A DNA stretch of 64,000 nt from Akkermansiaceae bacterium (GTDB taxonomy: Bacteria; Verrucomicrobiota; Verrucomicrobiia; Verrucomicrobiales; Akkermansiaceae), in the NCBI GenBank assembly GCA_044239965.1, contig JBIIAI010000001.1, positions 1,190 through 65,189 of the forward strand, in the 5' to 3' direction. The notes beneath the pieces were generated by a model that was given only the letters and a program-made list of their open reading frames with translations, searched no databases and was not told the DNA's origin. Shown here one piece after another: positions 5,823-32,031 of the stretch (the first letter of the stretch is position 1; each line of letters starts with the position of its first letter). Made by a program: the position numbers and the translations under genes.

Positions 5823-7334
5823 ATGATTCAGTCTATCCTTGTGTTAGGATCGGGCAGTGCTGGCTTAATCGCGGCATTAACGATCAAGAGAAAGATCCCG
5901 CAGGTGCGTGTCACGATTGTGCGCAGTCCTGAGATTGGGATCATTGGTGTGGGCGAGGGCACGACACCGAATTTCCCGCGTCATTTGTTTGACTATTTGG
6001 GCATCAGTCGCAAGGAGTTTTACGCGATTGCCAAACCCACATGGAAGTTGGGCATTCGCTTTCTCTGGGGCGAGCGCAAGGAATTTTACTATGGGTTTTC
6101 CCAGCAGTTAGATGCACAATGGAGCGCTCTGCCAAAGCCTAACGGCTACTACTGCGACGATGATTTCTCTGCGGTGGATGTTCCTGTGGCAATGATGGAG
6201 CAAGGCAAAGTATTTGCTCGCCAAGCGAATGGCGCTCCCGATGTGCAACCATGGCATGCTTTTCACATTGAGAATGTGAATTTGGTGGAATGCTTGGAGC
6301 GCTACGCTCGAGCGATTGGCGTGGAAATCATCGATGGCAAAGTCGTCGGGGCAGAGCGCGGGCCAAAGGGGATTTCGGCAGTTTTCACGGAAGATGGCAG
6401 AAAGTTTGAAGCGGATTTTTATGTCGATTCCAGCGGCTTTCACAGCGAGTTGTTAGGCAAAACATTGGAAGAGCCATTTGTGAGCTTTGATAAATCATTG
6501 TTCTGTGATCGTGCGGTAGTCGGTGGCTGGGAGCGCGGGGCAGACGAACCAATTTTGCCCTACACGACGGCGGAAACCATGGATTCAGGCTGGGCTTGGC
6601 AGATCGAGCACGAGCATCATGTCAACCGTGGCTATGTGTATTCGTCTCATTTCATCTCGGATGATCAAGCGGCTGAGGAATTTACCCGCAAAAACCCGAA
6701 AGCGCCGAAGTCACCGCGGGTGGTAAAATTCCGCTCGGGTTGCTACAAGCGCATGTGGGTGGACAATGTCGTGGCCATTGGCAATGCCGGTGGATTTGTG
6801 GAGCCGCTCGAAGCCACGGCCTTGATGATTGTCTGCTCGGAGTCACAGACCTTGGTGGAATTTTTGCTGCATTCGAACTTAAAGCCAACGGAAACGTTCC
6901 GCAACTTGTTTAACAAAGCGCTATGGAATACATGGGAGGAGATCCGCAATTTCCTCGCGCTGCACTACTATGCGAATACGCGCATGGATACGCCGTATTG
7001 GAAAGCTTGTCGTGAGGAAACTGATATCTCTGGATTGCAGGAACTGCTCGCATTTTATCGCGAAAATGGTCCGACGGGATTCGGTCGTCACACCTTGCCG
7101 CATACGGGAACGGACTTTGGCATGGAAGGCTATCTTGTCATGATGGTCGGCAACAAAGTGCCCTACCAAAACCGTAGCACTCCAACCGAGGCAGAGTGGA
7201 ACATTTGGCGCAGCGCGCAGGCTCAAAATCGCGCCATTGCCTCACAGGCGATGACTGTCAAAGAAGCCCTCTATTTTGTCCACCATCCTGGATGGCAATG
7301 GAATTCCGATGCGCAGCCTCTCATCCCTCAATGA
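5823..7334 (+). CDS. flavin-dependent tryptophan-halogenase-family protein (paralog 1)
   Basis: 503 aa. N-terminal GSGSAGLIAA (GxGxxG) lies directly at the start, with no signal peptide. It also shows GVGEGTTPNF, TWKLGIRF (Lys codon at 6045-6047), GWAWQIEHEH at the WxWxIP position (6591-6608) and GNAGGFVEPLEATAL. Confidence 0.85.
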   Translation: MIQSILVLGSGSAGLIAALTIKRKIPQVRVTIVRSPEIGIIGVGEGTTPNFPRHLFDYLGISRKEFYAIAKPTWKLGIRFLWGERKEFYYGFSQQLDAQWSALPKPNGYYCDDDFSAVDVPVAMMEQGKVFARQANGAPDVQPWHAFHIENVNLVECLERYARAIGVEIIDGKVVGAERGPKGISAVFTEDGRKFEADFYVDSSGFHSELLGKTLEEPFVSFDKSLFCDRAVVGGWERGADEPILPYTTAETMDSGWAWQIEHEHHVNRGYVYSSHFISDDQAAEEFTRKNPKAPKSPRVVKFRSGCYKRMWVDNVVAIGNAGGFVEPLEATALMIVCSESQTLVEFLLHSNLKPTETFRNLFNKALWNTWEEIRNFLALHYYANTRMDTPYWKACREETDISGLQELLAFYRENGPTGFGRHTLPHTGTDFGMEGYLVMMVGNKVPYQNRSTPTEAEWNIWRSAQAQNRAIASQAMTVKEALYFVHHPGWQWNSDAQPLIPQ

Positions 7335-7412
7335 AATTTTTCGCAACCAAATCTCTCCCGTCAACATTAGATAACTGATACAAAACCCATAGAATAAAAC
7401 CCAAGTACAATC

Positions 7413-10400
7413 ATGAAACTCAAAAAATCTCTCATTTATTCGTTCGTGGCTTCGGCCGTGACTTTGCAATATTCCGCAACCGCCGTTGATATCGTGTGGA
7501 ACGGTTCGGTAAGCCAGGACATCAATGTTGGCGGCAACTGGAATGGTGGAATCGTGCCACCGGGAGCAGGCGCTCCTGCCGATGGTGATGCATTAGTCAA
7601 TGTCGCAACTGGGAACTTTCCTTCCGTGACTGCCGGCGAATCGTTCGCGAACCGCGACTGGAAAATCGGCATGGGACCTGGAAATGCGGGTCGTTTGGAT
7701 CAAAATGCGGGCACAATCTCTACGGCCAATGGTTCATGGATTTTCCTTGGCACTGATGGTGCAAATGGCACCTACAACCTTGCTGACAGTTCCGCTTCCG
7801 GCGGCACTCTGACGGGAATGGCGCAAGGCACTGGCAGTGCTACCTGCGGTGATATGTATGTGGGTGTGGGTGGATACCCTTGGGCAGCTAACACAAATCC
7901 AGCGAATCGTGGTGTCGGCACTCTCCGCCTCAATACGACGGGTAGCTTGGCGGCAACGGGCCTTGTAAACATTGCTCGCAATGGAGAAGGAACGATGCTG
8001 ATCGACTCAGGAACTTTTTCCTGCAACGAGTTATGGATTGGTCAAGGCGCTTCCGCAACAGGAATTACCTCCATCAGTGGCGGTGCGATTGTCACTAACA
8101 ACTGGACGATCATTGGTCGTGAGAGCGGCAATGGCACATTGAACATGACGGGGGGCTCCCTGACCAAAAACGGTGGTGGCCGTTTCGTCGTGGCAGATAA
8201 TGCAACGGGAGCGATGAACATGAGTGCCGGCACAGTCTCGGTGAATGATGAATTCTGGGTGGGTCAAGGTGGCTCTTCAAATGGGATCGTCACGCAGTCG
8301 GGTGGCACGATTTCGTGCAACAGCTGGATAGCCATCGGCCGCGACGGTGGCACAGGTGTCTATAACATGACGGGTGGCACCTTCAACAAAACGGGTGGTG
8401 GCTCCAATTTCATCGTAGGCGCAAGTGGACCTGGCACGATGACAATGTCTGGAAACAGCTTGCTCAATGTGTCTGGTGGCATCACTTGGATTGGAGAAAA
8501 CAATGCAGCTACATTCACCATGAGTGCGGGCAGCAACGCAGAAGTGCGCACGGCACAATTTGTTATGGGCACCTATGGTGGCGGCAATGCGAACGTTAAT
8601 CTCAGTGGTGGTACATTGAAAACAGGTTTGATCGATGGGGGTGATGGAACGGCCAATGTTACTTTCAATGGCACACAGGTAATTGCCACAGCCACGGCCC
8701 TGCCCTTCATTTCGGACCTCGATACGGCGGTGGTTGATGCGGGCGGCTTGAAGATCGATAGCGCTGGTTTCAACTTAGCATCAGCCCAAGCATTTTCTGG
8801 AACGGGCGGAGTCACCAAAACAGGTGCAGGCGTGTTGAGTTTAACCGGAGCAAGTTCCTATGCCGGCGACAATGTTCTTAGTGCTGGCACTTTGAATTTG
8901 ACCACTGCGTTCACTGGTGGTGGTGCTCTCTCTGTGAGTGGCAATACAACTCTTGGAGTGAAGGTTAATTCTCTCGATGAAGGCATCGTCCCCAGCGCAG
9001 TGACCTTATCTTCTGCTGATCCAAAGACCATCAACTTATCGTTGGCTACTGGCGGTAATCCATCAAGTTCGGGAGCTCCGATCCGCACGACGGGTGCTCT
9101 CGATGTGAGTGGGGTGACGACGATCAATGTTGCGGCGACAGGTCTGACAGTGGGACAATTTCCGCTCATTGCTTATGGCAGTAAGACAGGCAGTGGTTCG
9201 TTCCAACTCGGCACCTTGCCTCCGGGCGTAGTCGCAACGATTGTTGACACGGGCACTTCGATCGATCTCAACATCACCAGTGCCTCCAGCTATGAATGGG
9301 AGGGCACGGTTGCGGGCCAAGTATGGGATGTCAATACGACGGCCAACTGGTATAATGCTGTGACAGCCGCTACAGCTCAAGTGTATGTGGATGGAGGCTT
9401 GGTCACATTCAACAATACCGCGACAGGCTATGATCCCGTGCTGAATGTAGCTGTAGCCCCTTCGTCGACGGTATTCAATCATGATGCCATCAACTCGTAC
9501 TCTTTGACAGGCACTGGCTCGATTGGCGGAATCGGTAGCTTGAAAAAGCAAGGTGGTGGCACTCTGACCATGGGGTTGGTGAACACCTACACGGGAGCAA
9601 CCATCTTGGAAGGCGGCACCTTGACCGTCGATGCGCTTGCCAATGGCGGCATCGCCAGCGCGATCGGAGCTTCCTCGGCAAGTTCTAACAATCTGGTTTT
9701 TGCGGGTGGCACCTTGGACTATACTGGTCCTGCTACTTCGATCAATCGTGGCTACACCGTAGATGCTGCCACGGACCTGATTCTGAGCACCCTCAGCATT
9801 GACAATGATCTCACTCTTAGTGGTCAGGTCACAATGACTTCCGTAGGTCGTTTTCAAAAAACTGGCGCTGGCGTGCTCACCTTGACTTACCCCGGTGCAA
9901 ACGTGTTGGCAATGACTGGTGACAATGATGCTACCCCGGGCTATGTGATCTCGCAAGGTGGCCTAGTGCTTGCAGGTGCTGGTGCGCAAACGAATGCCAT
10001 CACTGGTCAGTTCCGTTTGGGGACCACTGCTAGTAACACCACAGCGCTGACCTTGGATAGCAGCACACTCACCGTGAACGGCCCGTCGATGGCGTCACTG
10101 GGCGATGATACGATTTCAACGATTACGATCGGTGGAACTGCTGTCTACCAATCCAATGGACGTTTTAACGTGGCTTATGGCGCGAATTCCGTAGCGAATG
10201 TGATCGTCGAAGGTAGCGGCATGCTCAACAAAGTCGCTGGCTGGTTGTCTGTGGGCAACAGTAGCAATGCTGCAGGCTTCATGACAGTTAAGGAAAATGG
10301 CGTGGTGAATAACTCCAATGGCGACTTCAACGTCAGCGATGTAGGAACCTCGTCAGGCACCCTAACGATTGAAGGTGCTGGAACCGTCAATAGCTCGGGT

Positions 10401-11753
10401 CCGATGTTCATCGGGAAAAATGGTGGCACTACGGGCACGCTGAATCTATCGAGCGGAACTCTCAATGTTACAGCAAACTTCTATTTGGCTCGCGAAGCTA
10501 CATCGACAGGAACTGCGACGCAAACTGGAGGTTCTTCCACGATGGGTGGAACGGGTGAAGTATTCATCGGCGCTAACGGTTCAGGGACCTATACTCTAAG
10601 CGGTGGCACAATGGTAACCAATGGCTGGCTTGCGGTGGGGCGTTACATTGCCGGCGTGGGTGTTCTGAACGTCTCGGGCGGAACCTTTACCCATAACTCT
10701 ACGGATCGTAACTTTATGGTCGGAGAGGAAGGCAATGGCACGTTGAATGTTTCGAATACAGGTGTGGTCGATTCGAGAGGGTTCTTCAGCATCGGCCACG
10801 CTGGTTCAGGAACTGGTGTTGTCAATCTGAATGGGGGCAAGCTGATGGTGAATCAAGTGGATTCGGGTAATGCCGCATCGAGCAGTGCTTTCAACTTCAA
10901 TGGTGGTGAGCTGGAAGCGAAGCGCAATGAAGTGAACTTCTTCCGCAATATTGATAATGCCGTCATTTTGTCGGGTGGCGCTTTCATTGACAGCAATGGT
11001 TTTGATATTGTTGCTGCACAAGCATTCTCTGGCGAGGGTAATCTCACGAAGCAGGGTAATGGTAAATTGACGCTGTCGGCTTTCCATTCCTACACGGGTG
11101 ACACCATTGTTTCTGCAGGAACATTGTCGCTGAGTCAGGATTACCTAGACAACGCATCCGATGTGGTGATTGCTACGGGTGCGACCCTAGAGCTGACACA
11201 CAATCAGACTGATGTGGTGGAAACGCTGACGATCAATGGAGTCGCAGTCACTGGTGAATGGGGTGCAGTCGGTTCTGGTGCACAGAACGAGTCCGCCTCG
11301 ATTACCGGAAGTGGAAGATTGCGCGTGGGTGCTGCTCTGCCATACATTGATTGGGCAGAGGGCAAGGCCTTGGATAATAGCAACAATGGCTTAGGTGCAG
11401 ATCCTGATGCTGACGGTATCGCCAACTTGCTGGAGTATTTCCTCGATGGAGATCCGAAGTTCTCGGATGCTACGATATTGCCTTCTGTGGCAGACAGCAC
11501 TGCAACGGATTTCGTGATGAAATTCAAGCGTCGTGATGATGCCAATGGTGATGTGACTGTGCAAAAATTCCAGTATGGTTCCGACCTAACAACTTGGAGT
11601 GATTTGTCGATTCCTGCTGCTGCTGGAACCTACAATGTAGGCGCTGTGACAATCACGGTAGCGGCCAATGGCGCGAATCCAGATGATATCACCGTAAGCG
11701 TGCCGAAGGGCGCAAACACCACAATGTTCGGACGCATTTCGGTGGAAGATTAA
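7413..11753 (+). CDS. giant secreted autotransporter-associated beta-strand (PATR) repeat protein with a C-terminal DxDxDG module
   Basis: 1446 aa. Signal-peptide-like N-terminus MKLKKSLIYSFVASAVTLQYSATA. It has many G-G-T-x beta-helix repeats and PATR units such as VTKTGAGVLSLTGASSYAGDNVLSAGTLNL and LTKQGNGKLTLSAFHSYTGDTIVSAGTLSL. The C-terminal module begins DPDADGIANLLEYFLDGDP at nt 11400. Confidence 0.85.
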   Translation: MKLKKSLIYSFVASAVTLQYSATAVDIVWNGSVSQDINVGGNWNGGIVPPGAGAPADGDALVNVATGNFPSVTAGESFANRDWKIGMGPGNAGRLDQNAGTISTANGSWIFLGTDGANGTYNLADSSASGGTLTGMAQGTGSATCGDMYVGVGGYPWAANTNPANRGVGTLRLNTTGSLAATGLVNIARNGEGTMLIDSGTFSCNELWIGQGASATGITSISGGAIVTNNWTIIGRESGNGTLNMTGGSLTKNGGGRFVVADNATGAMNMSAGTVSVNDEFWVGQGGSSNGIVTQSGGTISCNSWIAIGRDGGTGVYNMTGGTFNKTGGGSNFIVGASGPGTMTMSGNSLLNVSGGITWIGENNAATFTMSAGSNAEVRTAQFVMGTYGGGNANVNLSGGTLKTGLIDGGDGTANVTFNGTQVIATATALPFISDLDTAVVDAGGLKIDSAGFNLASAQAFSGTGGVTKTGAGVLSLTGASSYAGDNVLSAGTLNLTTAFTGGGALSVSGNTTLGVKVNSLDEGIVPSAVTLSSADPKTINLSLATGGNPSSSGAPIRTTGALDVSGVTTINVAATGLTVGQFPLIAYGSKTGSGSFQLGTLPPGVVATIVDTGTSIDLNITSASSYEWEGTVAGQVWDVNTTANWYNAVTAATAQVYVDGGLVTFNNTATGYDPVLNVAVAPSSTVFNHDAINSYSLTGTGSIGGIGSLKKQGGGTLTMGLVNTYTGATILEGGTLTVDALANGGIASAIGASSASSNNLVFAGGTLDYTGPATSINRGYTVDAATDLILSTLSIDNDLTLSGQVTMTSVGRFQKTGAGVLTLTYPGANVLAMTGDNDATPGYVISQGGLVLAGAGAQTNAITGQFRLGTTASNTTALTLDSSTLTVNGPSMASLGDDTISTITIGGTAVYQSNGRFNVAYGANSVANVIVEGSGMLNKVAGWLSVGNSSNAAGFMTVKENGVVNNSNGDFNVSDVGTSSGTLTIEGAGTVNSSGPMFIGKNGGTTGTLNLSSGTLNVTANFYLAREATSTGTATQTGGSSTMGGTGEVFIGANGSGTYTLSGGTMVTNGWLAVGRYIAGVGVLNVSGGTFTHNSTDRNFMVGEEGNGTLNVSNTGVVDSRGFFSIGHAGSGTGVVNLNGGKLMVNQVDSGNAASSSAFNFNGGELEAKRNEVNFFRNIDNAVILSGGAFIDSNGFDIVAAQAFSGEGNLTKQGNGKLTLSAFHSYTGDTIVSAGTLSLSQDYLDNASDVVIATGATLELTHNQTDVVETLTINGVAVTGEWGAVGSGAQNESASITGSGRLRVGAALPYIDWAEGKALDNSNNGLGADPDADGIANLLEYFLDGDPKFSDATILPSVADSTATDFVMKFKRRDDANGDVTVQKFQYGSDLTTWSDLSIPAAAGTYNVGAVTITVAANGANPDDITVSVPKGANTTMFGRISVED

Positions 11754-11780
11754 TTTTTCTGAGAAACCAAAAACAAACGC

Positions 11781-11820
11781 ACCTGCCACAATGCCTTCTT
11801 GCGCGTTGTGGCAGGTTTAT
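11781..11820 (+). terminator. rho-independent terminator after the 1446-aa gene
   Basis: A perfect 11-bp stem, ACCTGCCACAA (11781-11791) paired with TTGTGGCAGGT (11806-11816), with a 14-nt loop, followed by TTAT. It starts 28 nt after the stop codon. Confidence 0.6.
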
Positions 11821-11844
11821 GTATAGGAGTGAGCAACGTGACGT

Positions 11845-13344
11845 ATGAGTGAACAGATTCAGAGTATCTTGGTTTTGGGTGGTGGCAGTGCAGGCTTGAT
11901 TGCTGCGATCTCGCTGAAGCGAAAAATTCCTCATGTGAACGTGACTTTGTTGCGCAGTTCGGACATTGGAATCATTGGTGTGGGAGAGGGGACTACGCCG
12001 AATTTTCCCGCGCACATGTTTGATTATCTGGGCATCAAACGAAAAACGTTTTTTGCGATCGCCAAGCCGACGTGGAAACTCGGCATCCGCTTTTTGTGGG
12101 GCAAACGTGGACGATTTGACTACACCTTTGATCGTCAGATGGATCATCAGTTTGCCGACTTATCGATGCCGAGCGGGTACTATTGCGATGAGGACTTTTC
12201 GTGCGCAAGTTATCCAGCGGCCTTGATGCGACATGACAAGGTATTTCCGCGTCAGGAAAACGGATGTCCTGATGTCAAGGGTTGGCATGCGTTTCACATT
12301 GAGAATGAAAATTTGGTCGATCTGTTAGAGCGGGTGGCGCGCGAGATTGGAGTCGATTTTGTGGAGGGGAAATTGCAGGGTGCTGAGGCGGCAGCGGATG
12401 GGAAATTGCGGTCAATTTTGTTAGAGGATGATAGAAAGTTGACTGCTGATTTTTTTGTCGATGCGAGTGGTTTCCGTAGCGAGTTGTTAGGTGGATTCTA
12501 TCAAGAGGAATTTGTTTCCTTTCGCAATTCGCTCTTCTGTGATCGGGCGGTGGCTGGCGGATGGAAGCGGACTAATGAACCAATTTTGCCCTACACCACG
12601 GCCGAGACGATGAATGCAGGTTGGGCGTGGCAGATCGAACATGAGCACCATATCAATCGGGGTTATGTGTATTCTTCGGAGTCGATTTCTGATGAGCAAG
12701 CGGTGGAAGAATTTTGTCGAAAAAACCCGCTTGCTCCGCGTGAGCCGCGCTTGATCAAGTTCCGCTCAGGATACTATCGTAGGCAGTGGCGAGAAAATGT
12801 GGTGGCGATCGGCAATGCTGGTGGATTCGTGGAGCCGCTGGAGGCTACGGCTTTGATGATTGTTTGTGGCAATGTGCAGATGCTGGTGGAGATGCTGCAA
12901 CGCAGTTATCTTCAGCCATCGCCGACGATGCGCAGTTTGTTCAATCGGATGGCGGAAAAAACGTGGCTAGATATCCGCGATTTTTTGGCGCTGCATTATA
13001 AGTTTAACACATTGGTTGATACGGAGTTCTGGCGGCGTTGTCATGAGCAGACAGATGTGAGTGGGATTCAAGATCTCATTGACTACTACCGTGAAAATGG
13101 GCCGACGGGATTTTGTCGGTATTTGCTCTCGGGCACACAGAATGATTTCGGCTTGGAAGGATACTTAGTGATGTTGGTTGGCATGGGTGTGCCCTATGAC
13201 CGTCAATCCAAACTTTCGGAAGCGGAGCGACTGCGATGGCTGCAATACCAGCGGAACTTTTCCAGCCAGGCGATGCAGGCGATGGATGTCAAAGAAGCTC
13301 TGGGCTATGTGCACCATCCGCAATGGCAATGGAATGGCGATTGA
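11845..13344 (+). CDS. flavin-dependent tryptophan-halogenase-family protein (paralog 2)
   Basis: 499 aa and colinear with paralog 1, roughly two thirds identical by eye. It shares GGGSAGLIAA, GVGEGTTPNF, TWKLGIRF, GWAWQIEHEH (12622-12639) and GNAGGFVEPLEATAL. Confidence 0.85.
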   Translation: MSEQIQSILVLGGGSAGLIAAISLKRKIPHVNVTLLRSSDIGIIGVGEGTTPNFPAHMFDYLGIKRKTFFAIAKPTWKLGIRFLWGKRGRFDYTFDRQMDHQFADLSMPSGYYCDEDFSCASYPAALMRHDKVFPRQENGCPDVKGWHAFHIENENLVDLLERVAREIGVDFVEGKLQGAEAAADGKLRSILLEDDRKLTADFFVDASGFRSELLGGFYQEEFVSFRNSLFCDRAVAGGWKRTNEPILPYTTAETMNAGWAWQIEHEHHINRGYVYSSESISDEQAVEEFCRKNPLAPREPRLIKFRSGYYRRQWRENVVAIGNAGGFVEPLEATALMIVCGNVQMLVEMLQRSYLQPSPTMRSLFNRMAEKTWLDIRDFLALHYKFNTLVDTEFWRRCHEQTDVSGIQDLIDYYRENGPTGFCRYLLSGTQNDFGLEGYLVMLVGMGVPYDRQSKLSEAERLRWLQYQRNFSSQAMQAMDVKEALGYVHHPQWQWNGD

Positions 13345-13348
13345 TCTT

Positions 13349-14113
13349 TCAGTGCTCCGTCATCCGGTAGCGCTGGCGATATTGCAGCGGAGTCTCGCCC
13401 ATTTCGCGGCGAAACAATTGCACAAACGAGCTAGCATCGGCAAAGCCGCAGCTTTGTGAGACGGTGGCAATTTTCTCGTCGTTCTGGCTGAGCATGCGGC
13501 AAGCAGCGCTCATGCGAGTTTTGAGGATGAATGCTTGTGGGCTACAGGCGAAGGCTTGATTGAAACGGCGGAGAAATTGGCGCTCGGACAGCCCAACAGT
13601 TTTGGCAAGATCAGTGACGTTGATTTTTTCGCGAAAGGAGGAGCGGATGATCTCGACGGCCTTGTCGATAAGCAGATAAGGCGTGATGATTTCCTTGGCT
13701 CCGGTGTAGCTCTGGGTGGTGCCCATGAGGCCGATGGCTTGCCCATTGACGTCGAGGATGGGGAATTTATTGGTGATATACCAATCAGGAATGCCGTGTC
13801 GATTGAAAAACAGCTCGACGATCTGGACCTTGGGGCATTTGCTGAGCATGACTTCTTTGTCATCGGCGCGAAAATGCTCGGCCATGTGAATGGGGAAAAA
13901 ATCGAAGTCCGTTTTGCCGAGCATTTGCTCCTCTTTGGTGTAGCCAAGTCGCTCGTAGAAGGATCGACTTCCTGCGAGCAATATGGAATCGAGGCTTTTG
14001 ACGAAAAAAGTGATTCCGGGAAGATTGTCGAAAAGCATTGTCAACATGCTGTGCTGTGTCAACGCGCTCAACACTTGCTCCTTTAGGGCTAGGAGTGATG
14101 TGTCGGATTTCAT
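13349..14113 (-). CDS. AraC-family transcriptional regulator with an N-terminal PAS-like sensor domain
   Basis: 254 aa. The C-terminal part has the typical AraC double HTH (INVTDLAKTVGLSERQFLRRFNQAFACSPQAFILKTRMSAACRMLSQNDEKIATVSQSCGFADASSFVQLFRREMGETPLQYRQ). The N-terminal roughly 130 aa is PAS-like (GITFFVKSLDS...DFDFFPIHMAEHFRADDKEVM...). Confidence 0.85.
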   Translation of the reverse strand: MKSDTSLLALKEQVLSALTQHSMLTMLFDNLPGITFFVKSLDSILLAGSRSFYERLGYTKEEQMLGKTDFDFFPIHMAEHFRADDKEVMLSKCPKVQIVELFFNRHGIPDWYITNKFPILDVNGQAIGLMGTTQSYTGAKEIITPYLLIDKAVEIIRSSFREKINVTDLAKTVGLSERQFLRRFNQAFACSPQAFILKTRMSAACRMLSQNDEKIATVSQSCGFADASSFVQLFRREMGETPLQYRQRYRMTEH

Positions 14114-21106: not shown

Positions 21107-21116
21107 TATTCCCTTC

Positions 21117-24200: not shown

Positions 24201-25871
24201 CTCTACGATACATCAAGCATCTCTGCAGCGAACATGTCGGCGGGTTTCAATGGAGGCAACGCCGCGACTGCTCCGAAAAGTGTCATCTCGTTGAACAATA
24301 GTTCCTCCTTGAACATTGGTTCAGGTGGCGGTTTCTTCGTTGCCGAAAGTCCTGGCTCACATGTGACGATGAACCTCAGTGGTAGTTCGGCCGTTACGAT
24401 CAATGGCAATGGCACTGCGATTAACCGCAGCATTGGTCATCTCGGCACCGGGATTTTGAATGTCAGTGGCTCCGCCAACTTCACAGATCAAAGCAATCAG
24501 GCGCTAAACATTGGTTTCCAAGGTGGCGTTGGCGAAGTTAACATCAATGGTGCGACGGCTCAGTTCAATCATCCGAACGGTGAAGTGCGCGTGGGTGCCG
24601 CGAATGCGAACGGAGCTTTTACTGGAGGCTCTGGCACGATTACGATCACCGAGGGCAATGCCGTGGTGGGTGCCTTGACTTTGGCGCGCGGGAATAACAG
24701 TGCTGCGCAGATCAATGGCACGGTGAATGTGAACGGTGGTACATTTACCTCGACGGGTGATGTGGTTCTCGGCTTCGCAGGTGCGGGCAATGTGGGACGT
24801 CTCAACGTCAACGGTGGTACTTTCAACGTCGGCACAACGGCGTCCAAGTGGTTGCAAGTGGGAGGTTACGATACTGCGATTGCTGAAGTCGTAATCGGTT
24901 CGGGTAACCTGAACTTGAATACCAATTCTGCGATCAAGATGAGCCGACAAAATGGAACAGGGGCTCATACATTTACCATGAATGGTGGCAATGTTACGTA
25001 TTTCAGTGACAATGCGACAACGGTTGGCGGAACGGGAGATCTCGACTTGCAATACGTTGGTGCCGCGACGACGAACAATACCTTCCATTTGAATGGCGGT
25101 GTGCTGACGGTCCCGAAAATCATCACCACGACTGATTCGGGAACGGTTGCCCTGAATTTGAATGGTGGCACGATCAAGGCAACAAACAACGAGGCCAATT
25201 TCCTCACCTTGGGTGGAGCAAATCAAAAGGTCTACGTCAAGAGCGGCGGAGCGGTGATCGATACCAACGGCTATGACATCACGATTGCCGAAGGGCTCGT
25301 TGATGGAGGAGGTAACGGTGGTCTAACGAAAAATGGCGAAGGCACTTTGACATTGTCGGGCACTAGCACCTACACAGGAACAACTACCGTCAATGCTGGT
25401 ACGCTCTATATCACGGGTGCTCTGGCCTCTACGAATTTTGTTGTTGAAGCAGGAGCAACCGTTGCAGGAAATGGCACCATCAGCAGCGATGTAACTTTGG
25501 ATGCAGGTGCAGAACTGAATCTCACGGGAGCAACGATCGATCTCGCAGGTAGTTCGAACATCCTCACCGTTGGCCTGAGCAATTCCATTACTCTTACAGA
25601 CTTCGGTTTTGCGAACATCGTCGGTTGGGACGCGGCTTCGGCAGCAGATGGCACTTATACCTTGATCAATGGTGCAAGTTCCGTGACTTTCAACGGCACG
25701 ACTCCGACTGCCGCAACTCCATTCTGGTTTGTTCCCGATGTGAAAAAAGGCTACTTCCAGCAAGGTAGTTTGCAGGCAGTGATCGTCACCGTTCCTGAGA
25801 CAAGCAGTGCGCTTCTTGGCGTGTTGGGTGCTTCTTGTGTATTCTTACGCCGCAGAAGGAATGCGAACTGA
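21213..25871 (+). CDS. giant secreted PATR repeat protein with a PEP-CTERM sorting tail
   Basis: 1552 aa. Signal peptide, then the VVWDGG motif. Two internally duplicated roughly 700-aa beta-helix modules each end in PATR units. The C-terminus VPETSSALLGVLGASCVFLRRRRNAN (nt 25791-25868) has the PEP-like motif, a TM helix and an Arg cluster. Confidence 0.85.
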   Translation: MKVKNQLFLRAVTGSTLLLSLTQAATVVWDGGAAGTGTTLETASNWVGDALPSVAADTIQWNGTVAGPLSLSYASGLGGAAGNIGLNVNLTSAQTSAVSIDSATNTAIRLNNVTLDSGAGAFTLGNGTGSGASAFAITLGGATNQTHTWSNNSTNTATINNDVLFGLGGGGIHALQFTGSGNWDVKNNLTVSNAATTGVQFSLQKTGAGTLTLSGGGSLKAGPVAFGSGTTGFGAVFKAGITNITGGNYAFNSSELVVGGLDVAGTNTQLNLSNAGAITGVSWLSIGRGNGAGAVSSNLTLNNTSSVAANDMSGGFNAGNTSTAPKGVVTLNDSSTLTVVSNVQLGESVNSDITLNINGTSTFSQTSTTGGSTRLGMANGAKGTINVGGGTANFQRDLVLGSGGTGSGKLVLNSGIVNMASTVERWLIVGNAAGASGQIDVNGGELRLNTNTDIRMGVGTVATTGVVNLNAGAITGYVGNGTGGFSTTSVVDMQNQGAASSNNTFNLNGGTLTIGQVISTATTGTRTFNFNGGSLKAAGANVNFFNIGTGSATASVKSGGAIIDSNGFDVTVVNSLVDGTGGGGLTKNGAGTLTLSGAASTYTGATNVNVGTLRVNGNLTSNISVANAATLSGNGSTTGTASFATGATLSVDPVAGDFAAAGVNFAGSTTLFFSSALTTGNTYDVITYAGGTLSGTSNLVKTSRGNFADTGTKLTFTAGGVLTDTWNAVSGTWQIGVSTPWSNGFDGEFWNSDTVVFDDTPGVDSTATIVGNVVPAAVNVSGATNHSFAGSGAISGSAAINKTGSGTLTIGNVNTHTGALTISEGTVVSTVSGGLSTAAATVLAGGTLNLGGISQTSGAFSIAAAAASGDTVSNGTLNPTSTDVSNASGNAIVSAAIGSGPLVKTGAGTLTMSGGANFNGGINAFGGSFVSVLKEGQTEITAGTYSYNNGELVVGGLDAVGTNTELKISNAGALTNMSWLSIGRGNGTGATSSNVSLYDTSSISAANMSAGFNGGNAATAPKSVISLNNSSSLNIGSGGGFFVAESPGSHVTMNLSGSSAVTINGNGTAINRSIGHLGTGILNVSGSANFTDQSNQALNIGFQGGVGEVNINGATAQFNHPNGEVRVGAANANGAFTGGSGTITITEGNAVVGALTLARGNNSAAQINGTVNVNGGTFTSTGDVVLGFAGAGNVGRLNVNGGTFNVGTTASKWLQVGGYDTAIAEVVIGSGNLNLNTNSAIKMSRQNGTGAHTFTMNGGNVTYFSDNATTVGGTGDLDLQYVGAATTNNTFHLNGGVLTVPKIITTTDSGTVALNLNGGTIKATNNEANFLTLGGANQKVYVKSGGAVIDTNGYDITIAEGLVDGGGNGGLTKNGEGTLTLSGTSTYTGTTTVNAGTLYITGALASTNFVVEAGATVAGNGTISSDVTLDAGAELNLTGATIDLAGSSNILTVGLSNSITLTDFGFANIVGWDAASAADGTYTLINGASSVTFNGTTPTAATPFWFVPDVKKGYFQQGSLQAVIVTVPETSSALLGVLGASCVFLRRRRNAN

Positions 25872-25956
25872 TTTCGTTCGTAGCTATCAAAATTGAATGA
25901 TTGAAGATGGGGGCGGTTCGAAAAAAATCGCCCTCTTCTTAGTTAAAACAAAACCC

Positions 25957-28900
25957 ATGAATGCAACTCGATCGATAGTTTTCGCCACGCTTGCTTGTCT
26001 GTTTTTCTCGCTTTGCGCTCAAGCGGGCATCGTGTCGTTTACTGCCTCGCGCGAGACGTTTTTACCGGGGCAACAGGTGGTCTTGTCTTGGGATGTAACC
26101 GCGGGAGATGCCATTTCGATCAGTCCGAGCGTAGGAACGGTATCGGGCACAACTGGATCGGTGACGGTGGTGCCGACGGCAGATACCACCTACTTGTTGA
26201 CGAATGCCACCAGTGGCACAACTGCTTCGGTGTCGTTGAGCATGCACAAAGCTGCAACGTTAAAACATCGTTGGTCCTTCAATGAGGGATCGGGAAATAC
26301 AGTAATCGATTCCGTCGCAGCAGTAAATGGCGTGATCGTTCCGTCATCGTCTACTATTCCAGCGAATCAGCATTCGCGCTCGGCATCGATGGTGACATTG
26401 CCCGGTGGAAGCTCGGGAACACGACCCTATATTGATTTGCCGAATACGAGTATGTCTGGTCTTGAAGAAGTCACTATCGAGGGCTGGATGACGCCGATTC
26501 AGCCCAGTGGGACGAATACGCGAATATGGCAGCGAGTTTTTGATTTTGGTACGGGAACCGCAGGGGAGGTGAACTCACGTGGCGGAACATTTAGCGGCGT
26601 ATCGTATCTTTTTCTCGCGTTGCAAAATGGCACAAACACGGGAGTGAAAGTGCCTGGTATTCGTGATGATTCGACGGAGCAGAACATTTCGATCGCTGAT
26701 GCGATTGGCTACGGTGCAGAATTTCATTTCGCCTATGTCTATGATCTCGATGGCAATGCGGGATCACCACAGATCCGTTATTATAAAAATGGTGTCTTAA
26801 TGACTTCGCTCAACACGCCACATTTACTCACGGGCATCCCTTTTGACAATGTGTGGTTGGGGCGATCGAATTGGTCTGCTGACTCGAATACGCAGGCAAG
26901 CTACAACGAGTTTCGGATCTGGAATCGTTCGATGAGCGCGGAGCGAGTGGCGGACAATGCCGCGGCGGGAGCTGATGCTTTTCCCACATCTGTTAGCATC
27001 GATTCCTTGACGGCCTTTCCTGCGCTCACGATCGAGTCGGGCCAAACGGCTCGTCTTTCATATGTGATCGCGAATCCCTCGGGTGGGAGTTTTACGGCAT
27101 CGATCAATCAAGGCGTCGGCGCGGTCACGGGCACGGAAGGATTTGTCTCCGTCACGCCAACTGCAACGACAACTTACACGCTTAGCGTCACAGCGGGTGC
27201 GATCACGCGCACGGCAAACGTCACGGTGACAGTAACGCCAGGTTCGCATCCTGCGGCGGAAAATCTGAGTTATCAAATTCCGCATAACACAACGACGGCC
27301 GCACGGATGGTCGCTAATGATTATCAAACAAATTCGCTCAGCTATAGCATCGTGACGCCACCTGCCAATGGTGTGCTTTCGGGAACGGCACCATTTTATT
27401 TTTACACACCGAACGCCGGATTTGCGGGAGTTGATAGCTTTACTTACAAAGCGAACGATGGTGGGCTCGACTCAAATACGGCCACAGTCACGCTCACGGT
27501 GTTACCTGCACCCGTAGCGCCGACAGCGGTCACGGCGAGCGATTCGGTGATCTACACAGATGCAGTGAATGGTTCGTTCATTACCCGATTGCGCACCACC
27601 GATGGCAATCCCGATGATACGTTTAGCTATGCGTTGGTGAACGGCGTGGGTGATACGCACAATGCTTGGTTTATACTTAATCAGCATCAATTGCTGAGTG
27701 CTCGTAATTTTTCGTTAGATAGTGGTGTCGCGGTTTCGATTCGTGTGCGGGTGACAGATTCTGCGTCGAACAGCTTTGAGCAAGTGCTAACATTTTCTGT
27801 TAGCCCGCGACCACAGACAGTGATGATTCATGAGATCAACTACAATCCCTCGCGTAATACCCAAGCGAGCGAGTTCATTGAATTGTTCAATCCTACGTCA
27901 GCAGCGATCGACCTCAGCAGTTGGCGTTTGGCAAATGCGGTGGATTATTTATTCCCTGTCGGCACCACCATTCCTGCCAATGGCTATCTGGTGATTGCAG
28001 AAAATCCAGCAGTGATCCAGAGCATGTATGTGGTTGCCTCGTTAGGTCCATGGACCGGCGGATTGAGTTCGCAAGGGGAATCGATCGAGCTGAGGAATGC
28101 CTTGGGCAATGTAGTGGATAGCGTGGATTTTGGAAATTCCGCACCATGGCCGACGGCACCGAATGGCGACGGTGCTTCGTTAGAGTTAGTCAATGGAACA
28201 TTCGATAACAACGTGGGCGGAGCGTGGAGCGCTTCGACTTCGGTAATCGCGAGTCAAACGTATCTCAGTGCTGGATCAGCGGGATGGCAGTATTTCAAAG
28301 GAACCAGCGAGGCTTCAACTCCGATGACGGCTTGGCGTGCGGAGAGTTTTAACGACAGTGCTTGGACGAGTGCTACCATGCCGCTAGGGATATTTAAAAT
28401 TAATAGCGATACGCCTTCTTCGTTCAATGCCGAAACGGGTGTCACATTGGCGACGCAGATCAATGACATGGCGACGTTCAATGGTTCGTCTTTCACTGCC
28501 GCCTATAACTCCGTCTTTTTGCGAAAAAATTTCACCGTCACTGGTGCGATCCCGCGAGCCTTGGTGCTTCGCGTGATGCGCAATGATGCGGCGATTGTCT
28601 ACATCAATGGCACGGAAGTCGCGCGCTTTGGGTTTTCTCCTGATGCTCCCGCCGAACCCGCCTACAATTCCACCGCGATCTATGAGCGGGCGAACGACCC
28701 TTGGAGCGATATTCTATGGCTCAATCCAGGCACCTTATTGCATCAAGGAACCAATACTATGGCGATCCATGCGTATGCGAAACCACCGCAATTGCGAGCC
28801 AATCAAGAAGACGTAGGAGTCTATCGGATTTTTGATTTTTGTGTCGATGCCGACCTCCGCACACCTGCAGAAATGATCGGTACACCCGGTGCGGCAAACT

Positions 28901-31900
28901 CATCGGCAGTGACCAATGCCGCACCCCCCGTGCGCAATGTCGACCACAGTCCCTCTGCGCCGAAACCTTGGGAGTCGATCAAAATCACCGCGCGCGTCAG
29001 TGATGCGCAAGGTCTGGGCAGTGTGCAACTGGCCTATCAGATTTGCACCGCCGGCAATTACATTCCCGCGACTTTGCCACGAACGACAGCGCAAGTGTTA
29101 GCCGATGCGAGTATTCCGCCTCCTGCGAACCCAGCCTTCGAGGACCCAGCGAATTGGACAGTGATCCCGATGACCGATGCTGGCGGACTTAATGATCAAG
29201 CGGGCGATGGCATTTTCACTGCGATCATTCCCGCGCAACCACATCGCACGCTGATTCGTTATCGCATCGTCGCAACCGATCTCACGGGAAACATCCGCAC
29301 GATACCCGCTGCCAATGACCCACGGAGAAATTTCGCGGCGTATTCGTATCATCGTGTGCCGAATTTCACAGCGGGTGGTACGACATACACTGCCGACACT
29401 CTGGACGACATTCCCGTCTATCAATTGTTGATGCGTCCGGCAGATTTCACTTCGTTGTTAGCTTACAACGGTGGTGATCAATACGCGAATAGCAGTGCCT
29501 TGAACGTGTTGAATGCTCGGCATTATGAAAACTTTCTTGGTACTATGATCGTAGGAGACCAAGTGATGGATCACACCGCGATGCGCCTGCGCGGCGGTAA
29601 CTCGCGCTATATGGGAGCGGGCAAACGCCATTTCCGATTCAATTTTCCGAAAGGTCACATGCTGCAAGCCTACGACGAGAAAGGCAACAAGTACGGCGCA
29701 AAGTGGGACTCCTTGTTATTCAATAAATTGTTCGGAAACAAGGGCGCGTATGACTTTGGACTTCCTTATGAAGTGGGCACCAAGCTCTGGGGATTGCAAG
29801 GTGTGCCGATGCCTGAGGCCACCTATGTGCACTTTCGAGTGGTGCGTGATGCCGATGAAAATCACGCCACTAACGGTGACTTTTGGGGGCTCTACCAAGC
29901 TCTCGAATTGCCCGAGGGAAAAAATTTCCTCGATGCTCGCAATTTGCCCAAGGGGAATTTTTATAAGACTACCGACTGGCAACAAAATGGTGAAATGGAC
30001 CAACGCTACCAAGCGCCGGGCGCGCCTGAGTTTGCGGAGGATTTTGATAACATTCGCTACAACATACACCAAACTACCGCGCAAAGCGACATCGAACGAT
30101 TCATCAACATGCCGCTTTGGTATAAATACAACGCGGTTCAGGAAGCGATCCGGCACTACGATATTTTCACCGAACCGACAGGTCGGCACCGGGTGAAAAA
30201 TTTGATCTGGTATTTTCATCCAACGGAAAATTCGAACGGACTCGGTCAACTTTGGTATATGCCCTACGATTGGGATGCATCGTTCGGGCCGAACTGGAAT
30301 AGCGGCTGGGATAATACGCACAATGCGATTTACAATCACGATGCCATTACCGATTCGCCAACTTGGCAATTGCCGATGGCCAATCGCGATCCGATGAAAA
30401 TCGCTCACCGCAATGCGATCCGCGAGTTTCGTGATCTCGTGTGGTATCGAGAACCTTCGACCGGGCGTGGGCCTTTCGACGACATCATCGATGATGCGAT
30501 GGCACCGATCGCGCAGTTCTATCAAGCCGACATGGCGCGCTGGCCGAATAATGCGGGCGCTGCGGCGTATTGGCCCGGTGGTGCTCCGGCGAAAGTCCAG
30601 GACATGAAAAATTTCTCATTCGTGAGTTGGTCCGATCCCTTTGGTGGCGACCCAGCTGTGGGGTCTGGTGGTCGTGCCGCGCACTTGGATGCCATCAGCG
30701 ATGCGATCGATAGCGGCTTGCTCCCAAGCACTCCGACGATCACTTACAATGGAGCACCAAGTTTTCCTGTCGATGGACTTGCTTTCGCGAGCTCTGCATT
30801 TGCCGATCCCCAAGGGTCTAACACATTTCAAGCAATGCAATGGCGCATCGGCGAAGTGACCGATGCCAATGCTCCCGCATACGATCCTCTTGCGGATCGG
30901 ATCTACGAAGTCACACCCGTGTGGGAAAGTGGCACACGTACCAGTTTTGCGAGCACTCAATTGATCCCCGGGGCGGCATTGCGCGTGGGGCATAGTTATC
31001 GTGCACGAGTCCGTCATCAAGATAGCTCGGGCCGCTGGAGTCACTGGAGCGCGCCGGTTTCGTTTACGACCACGATTTCGAATTACGTCGAGATTCTGAA
31101 ACAGAATTTGATGATTTCAGAAATCATGTATCATCCCGATGTACCCAGTGCGGCTGAGGCCGCGGCGGGATTTGTGGAGTCAGATTTTGAATACATCGAG
31201 TTGCTCAACATATCGCCAAGCCTCACGCTTGATCTCACCAATGTGCGCTTCACCAAGGGTATTGATTTTGATTGGGCCTTTGCCCCGATCACTTCACTTG
31301 CTCCGGGACAGCGTGTTTTGATCGTGAAAAAACAAGCGGCATTCGTGATGCGATACGGAGTGGCTTCAGTCCCGATCGTTGGCGAGTGGGATTCGTTAGA
31401 TAGTTTGTCGAACAACGGCGAGCAGCTGAAGTTGTCCTATGGTGCTGGCGTAGCGATCCACGATTTTGTCTATGATGACTTGGCACCTTGGCCGACCGCT
31501 GCGGATACAGGATTTTATTCGTTAGTGTTGTTTGATCCCATGAGTGCACCCAACCATGGAGTTGCCATCAACTGGCGAGCAAGCTATGTGATCAAAGGCA
31601 CACCTGGCAGTAGTGAGTTCACATCCTACGCGGAGTGGGCTGCTCATTGGACTCTCAGCGACCCCGCAGGTGATCCTGATGGCGATGCTGTGGCCAATCG
31701 ACTGGAATACATCCTCGGCGGCGATCCCACAGAAAACGATGTGGGTATTTTGCCTAAACCTTCGCGGGAAGGTGCGAATCTTGTTTTAGAGTTTCAGCGG
31801 CGAGATGGAGCTGAATGGGGTGAAATGCTGATGCTTCAGAGCAGCTCGAATCTCTCCTCATGGCCACTTGCCAGTGAGGTTTTGCTAGGTTCATCTTCGG

Positions 31901-32031
31901 TTGCGGCGGGCGAGTTGGCCCATGGGATCAGTTATACCATTGAAGAAAATGGCACGGAACCTGATGACATTCGTGTCACGATTCCGATCCTCGATGCGCG
32001 CAGGTTTTGGAGATTGCAAACCAGCTGGTAA
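25957..32031 (+). CDS. large secreted multidomain protein: Ig-like repeats, LamG-like, cadherin-like, lamin-tail (LTD), CotH kinase-like, second LTD, C-terminal DxDxDG module
   Basis: The ORF opens at 25897, but the ATG at 25957 gives the signal peptide MNATRSIVFATLACLFFSLCAQAG.
- LamG-like region from about 26260 (LKHRWSFNEGSGN...WQRVFDFG...YKNG...NEFRIWNRSMS).
- LTD 1 from about 27820 (IHEINYNPS...EFIELFNPTSAAIDLSSWRL).
- CotH-like core around 29350-30600 (MRLRGGNSRYMGAGKRHFRFNFPKG at 29581).
- LTD 2 from about 31108 (ISEIMYHPD...FEYIELLNISPSLTLDLTNVRF).
- The tail begins DPDGDAVANRLEYILGGDP at 31672. Confidence 0.8.
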   Translation: MNATRSIVFATLACLFFSLCAQAGIVSFTASRETFLPGQQVVLSWDVTAGDAISISPSVGTVSGTTGSVTVVPTADTTYLLTNATSGTTASVSLSMHKAATLKHRWSFNEGSGNTVIDSVAAVNGVIVPSSSTIPANQHSRSASMVTLPGGSSGTRPYIDLPNTSMSGLEEVTIEGWMTPIQPSGTNTRIWQRVFDFGTGTAGEVNSRGGTFSGVSYLFLALQNGTNTGVKVPGIRDDSTEQNISIADAIGYGAEFHFAYVYDLDGNAGSPQIRYYKNGVLMTSLNTPHLLTGIPFDNVWLGRSNWSADSNTQASYNEFRIWNRSMSAERVADNAAAGADAFPTSVSIDSLTAFPALTIESGQTARLSYVIANPSGGSFTASINQGVGAVTGTEGFVSVTPTATTTYTLSVTAGAITRTANVTVTVTPGSHPAAENLSYQIPHNTTTAARMVANDYQTNSLSYSIVTPPANGVLSGTAPFYFYTPNAGFAGVDSFTYKANDGGLDSNTATVTLTVLPAPVAPTAVTASDSVIYTDAVNGSFITRLRTTDGNPDDTFSYALVNGVGDTHNAWFILNQHQLLSARNFSLDSGVAVSIRVRVTDSASNSFEQVLTFSVSPRPQTVMIHEINYNPSRNTQASEFIELFNPTSAAIDLSSWRLANAVDYLFPVGTTIPANGYLVIAENPAVIQSMYVVASLGPWTGGLSSQGESIELRNALGNVVDSVDFGNSAPWPTAPNGDGASLELVNGTFDNNVGGAWSASTSVIASQTYLSAGSAGWQYFKGTSEASTPMTAWRAESFNDSAWTSATMPLGIFKINSDTPSSFNAETGVTLATQINDMATFNGSSFTAAYNSVFLRKNFTVTGAIPRALVLRVMRNDAAIVYINGTEVARFGFSPDAPAEPAYNSTAIYERANDPWSDILWLNPGTLLHQGTNTMAIHAYAKPPQLRANQEDVGVYRIFDFCVDADLRTPAEMIGTPGAANSSAVTNAAPPVRNVDHSPSAPKPWESIKITARVSDAQGLGSVQLAYQICTAGNYIPATLPRTTAQVLADASIPPPANPAFEDPANWTVIPMTDAGGLNDQAGDGIFTAIIPAQPHRTLIRYRIVATDLTGNIRTIPAANDPRRNFAAYSYHRVPNFTAGGTTYTADTLDDIPVYQLLMRPADFTSLLAYNGGDQYANSSALNVLNARHYENFLGTMIVGDQVMDHTAMRLRGGNSRYMGAGKRHFRFNFPKGHMLQAYDEKGNKYGAKWDSLLFNKLFGNKGAYDFGLPYEVGTKLWGLQGVPMPEATYVHFRVVRDADENHATNGDFWGLYQALELPEGKNFLDARNLPKGNFYKTTDWQQNGEMDQRYQAPGAPEFAEDFDNIRYNIHQTTAQSDIERFINMPLWYKYNAVQEAIRHYDIFTEPTGRHRVKNLIWYFHPTENSNGLGQLWYMPYDWDASFGPNWNSGWDNTHNAIYNHDAITDSPTWQLPMANRDPMKIAHRNAIREFRDLVWYREPSTGRGPFDDIIDDAMAPIAQFYQADMARWPNNAGAAAYWPGGAPAKVQDMKNFSFVSWSDPFGGDPAVGSGGRAAHLDAISDAIDSGLLPSTPTITYNGAPSFPVDGLAFASSAFADPQGSNTFQAMQWRIGEVTDANAPAYDPLADRIYEVTPVWESGTRTSFASTQLIPGAALRVGHSYRARVRHQDSSGRWSHWSAPVSFTTTISNYVEILKQNLMISEIMYHPDVPSAAEAAAGFVESDFEYIELLNISPSLTLDLTNVRFTKGIDFDWAFAPITSLAPGQRVLIVKKQAAFVMRYGVASVPIVGEWDSLDSLSNNGEQLKLSYGAGVAIHDFVYDDLAPWPTAADTGFYSLVLFDPMSAPNHGVAINWRASYVIKGTPGSSEFTSYAEWAAHWTLSDPAGDPDGDAVANRLEYILGGDPTENDVGILPKPSREGANLVLEFQRRDGAEWGEMLMLQSSSNLSSWPLASEVLLGSSSVAAGELAHGISYTIEENGTEPDDIRVTIPILDARRFWRLQTSW

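Follow-up and report, generated by a model that had tools for sequence, protein, structure and literature searches.

Two genes for flavin-dependent halogenases, hal1 and hal2, lie beside genes for giant exported surface proteins in a 64,000-nucleotide (nt) stretch of contig JBIIAI010000001.1 from an Akkermansiaceae bacterium (hereafter the window, meaning the whole stretch analysed), and this pairing recurs in related loci. The first gene, hal1 (5823-7334, + strand), encodes a predicted cytoplasmic halogenase of the MibH clade, 503 amino acids (aa) long, that matches the Pfam family Trp_halogenase (PF04820, E = 4.8e-102) over profile positions 2-445 of 458. After a gap of 78 nt (7335-7412) comes patr1 (7413-11753, +), which encodes a 1446-aa surface protein with PATR beta-strand repeats (PATR E = 8.2e-17; TIGR02601 and TIGR04393) and a Sec signal, and then hal2 (11845-13344, +), whose 499-aa product is a paralogous MibH-clade flavin-dependent halogenase (Trp_halogenase E = 8.7e-104; profile positions 2-453 of 458). 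A PAS-AraC transcription regulator (13349-14113, - strand; 229 aa in the public gene call) runs convergent to hal2, their stop codons being 4 nt apart, and divergent from patr2; it joins an N-terminal sensor domain (PAS_4, E = 7.1e-09) to a C-terminal AraC domain (HTH_18, E = 3.1e-22), the architecture of the AraC/XylS family. Beyond it lie patr2 (14186-21106, +; 2306 aa; PATR E = 1.1e-25), patr3 (21213-25871, +; 1552 aa; PATR E = 4.3e-21), and a gene for a giant secreted CotH-kinase-like protein (25897-32031, +) with the Pfam domains Laminin_G_3, Big_9, LTD, CotH, and Ig_Rha78A_N. As a maximal open reading frame (ORF) the last of these spans 2044 aa, and its likely start at 25957, a Met before the signal peptide, gives about 2024 aa. 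The genes of the locus also occur in three other public contigs, and hal1 is found at 100% identity in a further locus from our survey (L001).

All three PATR proteins carry multiple PF12951/TIGR02601 repeats and signal-peptide-like N-termini. Two of them, patr1 and patr2, are paralogs (34-37% identical, the C-terminal part being closer), and patr3 is only weakly related to patr1. The C-terminus of patr3, VPETSSALLGVLGASCVFLRRRRNAN, reads by eye as PEP-CTERM-like—VPETSS, a hydrophobic run, then RRRR—and this tail had no NCBIfam match at E <= 0.01, nor was an exosortase gene seen in the window. The proteins patr1 and patr2 and the CotH protein have in common an unannotated C-terminal module of about 150 aa (11301-11750, 20654-21103, and 31582-32028, respectively), marked by the motifs Y..WA, DPDxDG..N..EY, S.DL..W, ENG..DD, and F.R.

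The two halogenases are 65% identical over 496 aa, and neither has a signal peptide. A GxGxxG motif lies at residues 9-14 in hal1 (GSGSAG) and 12-17 in hal2 (GGGSAG), and the glycines of this FAD-binding loop (G9, G11, and G14) do not vary across 24 aligned homologs. The same alignment shows an invariant Lys75 within PTWKLGIRF, which aligns with PTWKLGIRF in MibH and SYKTAIRF in LooH and which we take to be the equivalent of PrnA K79; likewise, FVEPLEAT aligns with FVEPLES of MibH and LooH, with E327 and E330 invariant and the catalytic Glu equivalent to PrnA E346. The WxWxIP motif reads WAWQIE here: W257, W259, and I261 are invariant, and Glu stands in place of Pro in at least 90% of the 24 homologs. 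The two tryptophans of this motif are thought to block direct monooxygenation. Among sequences with solved structures, MibH (5UAO) is the best relative (E = 3.6e-89, 39% identity, nearly full length), followed by a match at E = 4.7e-60, with RebH and PrnA at about 1e-58. An AlphaFold2 model of the halogenase (pLDDT 74.9) likewise returned 5UAO/MibH as its top Foldseek match (E = 3.9e-37, TM 0.81). Matches to QhpG and LodB were weak (37.8-41 bits against a cut-off of 240 for QhpG, and about 25 against 400 for LodB). Thus, hal1 and hal2 encode bona fide-looking flavin-dependent halogenases, with activity predicted from family and motifs; as judged by these matches, they lie nearer to characterised enzymes that act on peptides than to those that act on free tryptophan.

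Pfam scans of window ORFs of at least 150 aa returned no flavin reductase, carrier protein, nonribosomal peptide synthetase or polyketide synthase (NRPS/PKS), or tryptophan-pathway gene. A preliminary description of this stretch, made from its letters, had reported the same absence, and the rest of its inventory agrees with ours: the ORF listing and Pfam annotation place each gene where it had been put, with the 78-nt gap between hal1 and the following PATR gene, PATR repeats in the proteins given as 1446, 2306, and 1552 aa, a CotH protein of about 2024 aa (if begun at 25957), the convergent regulator, and two halogenases, described as two-thirds identical by eye, that lack signal peptides and have GxGxxG at the N-terminus.

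To see how widely halogenase and giant genes are paired, we drew on a genome-collection scan that yielded 80 loci, nearly all from Verrucomicrobiota, with halogenase homologs 49-100% identical, and added three isolate loci for a set of 83. Neighbouring ORFs were called anew, with the halogenase ORFs forced in, and were labelled with a PATR-repeat hidden Markov model built from the window and with phmmer. Genes for PATR proteins or for proteins with LamG domains and TSP3 repeats made up 35 of the 156 immediate neighbours of halogenases (22%); this share was 8/127 at a distance of two genes, 6/111 at three, 2/98 at four, and 2/309 (0.6%) at five or more. The adjacent position is thus enriched about 35-fold relative to positions at least five genes away (odds ratio 44, Fisher p = 5e-16), a p value that overstates independence since the genomes are related. 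Clustering of the neighbours gave two recurrent families besides the halogenase itself: a PATR family with 32 members (3 of them from the window) from 28 sources, and a LamG/TSP3 family of about 1100 aa found in 16 loci. No other conserved family—reductase, precursor peptide, transporter, or tailoring enzyme—emerged from clustering the neighbours in these loci. A small conserved partner encoded after the halogenase, possibly a flavin reductase, was considered and rejected: five such ORFs of 150-180 aa were checked and gave no match to a reductase, Pfam recognising a bPH_2 domain in one of them and nothing in the other four. A secondary-metabolite cluster is also ruled out, as no NRPS/PKS, carrier, reductase, RiPP (ribosomally synthesised and post-translationally modified peptide) precursor, or tailoring genes are present in the window or recur as neighbours.

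The pairing was equally apparent in long contigs with database gene calls and Pfam labels, where a PATR gene lies within two genes of a halogenase in seven of seven cases, three of them from cultured isolates. Gene order in Luteolibacter flavescens is PATR, halogenase, PATR; in L. marinus, three PATR genes are interleaved with two halogenases; and strain sgz303538 is also among the seven. In an isolate of Roseibacillus ishigakijimensis, a PATR gene is followed after 10 nt by the halogenase. Metagenome-assembled genomes (MAGs) with the pairing are labelled Verrucomicrobiales, Chthoniobacterales, Limisphaerales, and Puniceicoccaceae. Regulators often accompany it: orthologs of the PAS-AraC protein (39-40% identity) adjoin halogenase genes in loci L023 and L032, and AraC/XylR-type regulators lie beside cassettes in these two and in L011, L015, L057, L062, L064, L082, and L086. 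Outside Verrucomicrobiota, Actinomycetota encode homologs 53-55% identical to the verrucomicrobial enzyme (L043 from Mycobacterium helveticum, L045 from Mycobacterium sp. Lab-001, and L066 from an Actinomycetota MAG), a distribution that suggests either horizontal transfer or a function without need for giant proteins. In the literature that we searched, a pairing of halogenase genes with giant PATR or LamG proteins is nowhere described, and nothing relevant emerged on halogenases in polysaccharide loci, in Verrucomicrobia, or beside TonB-dependent receptors.

Paired genes were arranged in several ways across the loci: giant gene then halogenase on the same strand in 18 cases, halogenase then giant gene in 8, divergent in 8, and convergent in 1. 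The window's patr1-hal2 pair fits the commonest of these orders. Partner type is tracked by halogenase subclade, and hal1 and hal2 fall in distinct subclades, each with its own orthologs elsewhere. Recent tandem duplication is ruled out, given that hal1 and hal2 are 65% identical to each other and 65-71% identical to homologs in other genomes and belong to different subclades. The hal1 and hal2 cassettes are probably two ancient paralogous copies of one recurring cassette. In a MAG locus (L034), the nearest relative of hal2, an ortholog with 66% identity, is followed after 52 nt by an ortholog of patr2 (64% over 1861 aa), with no AraC gene between. In the window, hal2 and patr2 are parted by the opposite-strand AraC gene and so cannot be co-transcribed.

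These results sharpen what the preliminary description had proposed. Its expectation that adjacency would be conserved in related genomes is borne out by the 22% versus 0.6% contrast. Its duplicated enzyme-plus-giant unit survives in that patr1 and patr2 are paralogs and the hal2-patr2 pair is kept in L034, but not as the product of a recent tandem duplication. The order it had emphasised, halogenase then giant protein, is real in 8 cases, yet the reverse order is commoner and usually has a hairpin between the genes. Finally, PATR proteins as the partner are upheld by the enrichment, but that position can also be occupied by LamG/TSP3 proteins and, in one contig, by secreted cellulases.

A distant halogenase clade is preceded by an AraC gene and a protein with three LamG domains and TSP3 repeats. 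In a 23-kb contig of a Prosthecobacter debontii MAG (CAMAUI010000073, covered by the overlapping loci L036 and L039), nine halogenase paralogs form two tandem runs, of four and five, and flank three secreted cellulases: a GH6 enzyme, a GH5 enzyme with CBM2/Calx-beta, and a GH48 enzyme with FecR. Elsewhere, the glycoside hydrolase neighbours are of families GH36, GH97, and GH16. At the C-terminus, other halogenase partners have PEP-CTERM tails or different modules that look beta-sandwich-like. The partners thus have two traits in common: all are large and exported, and binding or degradation of glycans is their probable role. The former trait favours the idea that the protein itself is the substrate, and the latter favours co-regulation within a scavenging regulon. 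A generic W-x-G...W...NW motif is found at the N-terminus of the PATR partners, and a single Trp lies close to the N-terminus in most LamG partners; a common Trp-bearing motif in all partners is ruled out, as nothing is shared by the PATR and LamG classes and the C-terminal modules are of at least four types.

In L084, the order is PATR gene, halogenase, a 469-aa Beta_elim_lyase of the tryptophanase/tyrosine phenol-lyase type (9614-11023), and then a histidine-utilisation operon. In Luteolibacter marinus (L083), a gene for a 176-aa PF02441 flavoprotein (4317-4847) lies just upstream of a PATR-then-halogenase pair; that family includes cysteine decarboxylases of the LanD/MibD type.

Upstream of hal1 is a candidate activator-dependent promoter for the hal1 operon (5696-5759, +). 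It consists of two 14-nt direct repeats, TGCGCAAAAWCWCA, at 5696-5709 and 5717-5730 (21-nt spacing), that abut a TTGACA box (5731-5736), a 17-nt spacer, and a TAGGTT box (5754-5759). Direct-repeat geometry of this kind is typical of AraC/XylS activator sites. A motif search found the composite operator twice in the window, once ahead of hal1 and once (32155-32189, +) ahead of the prepilin-like gene at 32337, and in 0 of 100 shuffles. The repeats and the -35 box are the best-conserved block of the hal1 upstream spacer in L001, where that spacer is otherwise 76% identical. The motif is absent from the araC-patr2 divergent spacer and from 1.38 Mb of other loci, being seen only in the same species and hence with no cross-genus support. 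Given the repeat geometry, the putative operator may be bound by an AraC-family protein, for which the nearby PAS-AraC regulator is the obvious candidate, and its second copy suggests that hal1 and the 32337 gene may share an AraC-type regulon. The predicted hal1 5' leader also holds an inverted repeat of 9 + 9 nt (5769-5793, +) with arms that are 100% complementary, a pairing kept in L001 through a double change from G-C to A-T.

We folded the spacers between paired genes, recording folding free energies (dG) and z scores. The patr1-hal2 spacer contains a strong stem-loop (11781-11816, +) of 14 bp with 8 G-C pairs (dG -28.2, z = -3.4), with a weak T tail after the stem and only 28 nt between the stem-loop and the hal2 ATG. 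Among the other giant-to-halogenase spacers folded, 11 of 17 have a GC-rich hairpin and T run directly 3' of the giant gene. Halogenase-to-giant spacers gave no clear terminator on folding, and the 78-nt hal1-patr1 spacer of the window is without a hairpin. The 11781-11816 stem-loop is likely a terminator or attenuator. Because some spacers (56 nt in L003 and 44 nt in L073) are too short to hold a promoter after the hairpin, attenuated read-through would be the simplest reading, as in operons that encode a low-level accessory enzyme after an abundant structural protein.

From gene context, we infer that the enzyme and the giant protein are functionally coupled, and a mechanism can be proposed on that footing. 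Each cassette would comprise a cytoplasmic MibH-clade halogenase and a giant Sec-exported surface protein, often with an AraC or XylR regulator. Here, the promoter with the AraC-type direct-repeat operator would probably drive hal1 and patr1, hal2 would be expressed more weakly, through transcription that reads past the hairpin after patr1, and the PAS-AraC gene would stand divergent from a patr2-patr3-CotH unit. The halogenase would take FADH2 from a housekeeping reductase, together with O2 and chloride or bromide, and would form a lysine-bound or enclosed hypohalous species; exposed Trp side chains on the unfolded giant pre-protein would then be halogenated before Sec export. This would parallel the action of MibH and ChlH on peptides and of QhpG on peptidyl Trp in the cytoplasm before translocation. 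Of this, the analysis shows the enzyme family, catalytic motifs that are intact except for the P-to-E change in WxWxIP, the lack of a signal peptide, the conserved adjacency, and the terminator-like architecture; co-regulation, substrate, and timing are the parts of the model that we infer.

Halogenation of peptidyl Trp in the giant protein before its Sec export is the mechanism that we tentatively favour, as one possibility among several. This option, which the preliminary description had raised, is supported indirectly by the match to MibH, an enzyme that halogenates Trp within a peptide and whose solved structure is the nearest to ours in both sequence and fold. A number of observations weigh against it. 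An identity of 39% to MibH does not fix the substrate class; no Trp is conserved across all partner types, and the Trp content of the PATR proteins is ordinary (1.0-1.2%); and we know of no natural halogenated Trp in a large bacterial protein. The Pfam scan of window ORFs of at least 150 aa found no flavin reductase. The hairpin and T run between giant gene and halogenase could mean separate transcription units, and the tryptophanase-like gene right after the halogenase in L084 points to free indole. Roughly half of the halogenase genes have unrelated neighbours (RapA, UvrD, FeoB, CarB, a Ser/Thr kinase, a PAS histidine kinase, or Pfam-less proteins), and the approximately 55%-identical Mycobacterium homologs lie among housekeeping genes with no giant-protein neighbour. 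Moreover, the glycan-related partners and the XylR-like, sugar-type regulators fit a ligand-centred explanation equally well. Under such an explanation—a real possibility, and nearly as likely as a protein substrate—the halogenase would act in the cytoplasm on a small molecule such as free indole, an aglycone, a signal, or another aromatic, and would share with the surface proteins only its regulation, within a regulon for scavenging nutrients or remodelling the surface that an AraC/XylR protein controls in response to sugars or ligands, with TonB-receptor-linked orphan halogenases as the analogue. XylR-type and PAS-type AraC regulators do recur in cassettes, as do GH6, GH5, GH48, GH36, GH97, and GH16 neighbours in some loci; the Beta_elim_lyase gene of L084, the many stand-alone homologs (mycobacterial ones included), and the terminator-like hairpin that parts giant gene from halogenase all point the same way. 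In vitro halogenation of free indole has been shown for BrvH and Xcc4156 (PMC7336383, PMC8269204), although the authors of that work consider that indole may be standing in for a peptide substrate (PMC7336383). On the other hand, the nearest enzymes of known function are specific for peptides, the surveyed loci show no conserved transporter, reductase, or additional pathway enzyme beside the halogenase, and a small-molecule substrate would leave unexplained an immediate adjacency, often of 4-165 nt, that holds across different partner folds.

It is unlikely that the adjacency has no functional meaning, with both kinds of gene accumulating or duplicating in flexible regions and shared ancestry inflating the apparent conservation. 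PATR genes are indeed abundant: the 64-kb window has four, one of them far from any halogenase (a fourth PATR/LamG protein at 56275-59052), from which we take PATR genes to be common in this genome. The sampled genomes are related, so that counts are not independent, and both the many homologs without giant neighbours and the terminator-like hairpin between paired genes are what such an account would predict. Set against this are the approximately 35-fold enrichment over positions at least five genes away in the same loci, the span of the pairing from Verrucomicrobiales and Chthoniobacterales to Limisphaerales and Puniceicoccaceae-labelled MAGs, the occurrence of at least four arrangements with two unrelated partner architectures that track halogenase subclades, and the persistence of pairs while the giant protein diverges strongly. 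The association is therefore strong but not obligatory, since about half of the homologs, mycobacterial ones among them, are unpaired and PATR genes are common. More improbable still is that these enzymes are not halogenases in vivo and that the change from Pro to Glu (WAWQIE) permits flavin monooxygenase action, for example Trp hydroxylation like that of QhpG and LodB. WxWxIE in place of WxWxIP is nearly invariant in the clade, and there are weak matches to QhpG and LodB; however, those matches are far under the family cut-offs, the halogenase-specific catalytic Lys and the Glu of EPLE are invariant, and both Trp of the motif are kept.

Flavin-dependent halogenases are sought-after as biocatalysts, and a very large share of the family, including thousands in Verrucomicrobiota, has no known natural substrate; our homolog search scored 6361 proteins at E <= 1e-20 among 8000 candidates. 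A conserved pairing turns this orphan-enzyme problem into a concrete experiment on a defined neighbouring protein in cultured strains. Were the giant proteins to be the substrates, the cassettes would offer natural machinery for halogenating large proteins at selected sites and would represent a new kind of bacterial surface chemistry; they would also suggest natural substrates for the large orphan clade of tryptophan halogenase-like enzymes beside proteobacterial outer-membrane receptor genes, an adjacency that our reading did not confirm. Were they not, the cassette would still mark a regulon linking these enzymes to surface remodelling or polysaccharide scavenging. The broadest version of the proposal—that these are dedicated protein-modifying enzymes which chlorinate or brominate Trp of giant adhesins, lectins, and secreted cellulases before export, as a widespread new surface modification in the Planctomycetes-Verrucomicrobia-Chlamydiae (PVC) group—is somewhat less likely.

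Several features elsewhere in the window deserve brief mention. The prepilin-like protein (32337-35963, +; 1208 aa) has a hydrophobic N-terminus, GFTLIITISLLVLL, read by eye; it has no Pfam match, and its N-terminus resembles TIGR02600 (Verru_Chthon cassette protein A) only weakly, at E = 0.0028, far under the family cut-off. It is followed by a 242-aa secreted protein without family match, and the pair (32337-36704) may form a pseudopilin-like apparatus beside the giant-protein genes. Just downstream of the giant-protein cluster is a gene for a SelO-family protein adenylyltransferase (36718-38199, -; E = 9.7e-116). The region 40926-48457, in which GC content dips to 0.438 at 42-44 kb, has three Pfam-less ORFs there (688, 225, and 191 aa) that adjoin genes for an AlkB-like 2OG-Fe(II) oxygenase and an 877-aa HerA/DUF87-like ATPase, and may be a foreign or defence island. 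Further on, at 55472-59052, a 268-aa LamG protein is followed by a 925-aa protein with LamG and PATR, unpaired with a halogenase.

Among characterised systems, the peptide halogenases are the nearest to hal1 and hal2. MibH, the Trp-5-halogenase of the NAI-107 (microbisporicin) pathway, chlorinates a Trp of that lanthipeptide but not the free amino acid (PMC8269204, PMC7336383). ChlH, the related enzyme of the chlorolassin pathway (58% identity to MibH), has linear peptides as substrates and in vitro also chlorinated a single internal Trp within a protein of 1054 aa (bioRxiv 10.1101/2025.01.12.632611). With MibH, our enzymes share the fold, the identical TWKLGIRF lysine motif, and FVEPLE, and hal1, like MibH, is without the C-terminal motifs that bind free tryptophan (PMC8269204). 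They differ from MibH and ChlH in lying beside proteins of 1000-2800 aa rather than short peptides and in having WxWxIE for WxWxIP, and from ChlH also in that its dedicated reductase, ChlR, has no equivalent beside hal1 or hal2. Because no RiPP precursor, lanthipeptide, or lasso gene is present in the window or recurrent in the 83 loci, we do not class hal1 and hal2 as RiPP halogenases. PrnA, RebH, Thal, and PyrH have the same fold, catalytic Lys and Glu, and FAD-binding motif; their identity to our enzymes is 22-30%, however, and no secondary-metabolite cluster surrounds hal1 and hal2. In addition, the first substrate region reads GTTPNF here against the ATFS motifs of 5-/6-Trp halogenases (PMC8269204), and the YYHG-type C-terminal motif of the free-Trp enzymes is missing. 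BrvH and Xcc4156 resemble hal1 and hal2 as orphan flavin-dependent halogenases without a biosynthetic cluster for which a peptide substrate has been suggested (PMC7336383). They differ in being about 25% identical to hal1 in the Foldseek alignment, where they rank below MibH. Many genes of the BrvH/Xcc4156 type lie beside TonB-dependent receptor genes, a setting that our literature search did not confirm; if so, a TonB-dependent receptor, a large exported outer-membrane protein, would stand there in the place that PATR or LamG proteins take here, under the same logic of an exported protein plus a halogenase.

Precedent for the timing comes from QhpG, a cytoplasmic halogenase-like flavoenzyme that modifies peptidyl Trp before translocation and is encoded beside its substrate and the AraC-type regulator QhpR (PMC7876137). 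QhpG and LodB are flavoproteins that act on peptidyl Trp in an export-bound protein and thus provide a mechanistic precedent; their similarity to hal1 and hal2 is remote and sub-threshold, the reaction that they catalyse is hydroxylation, not halogenation, and the proteins that they modify are small subunits. The giant partners, for their part, resemble PVC PATR proteins with PEP-CTERM or other sorting modules—patr1-3 match PF12951 and TIGR02601, and patr3 is PEP-CTERM-like—and differ from autotransporters in having no beta-barrel, with patr1, patr2, and the CotH protein ending in the unannotated module instead. Taken together, these comparisons describe enzymes of a known family within a genomic partnership that is both new and conserved, and that may hide a new protein modification.

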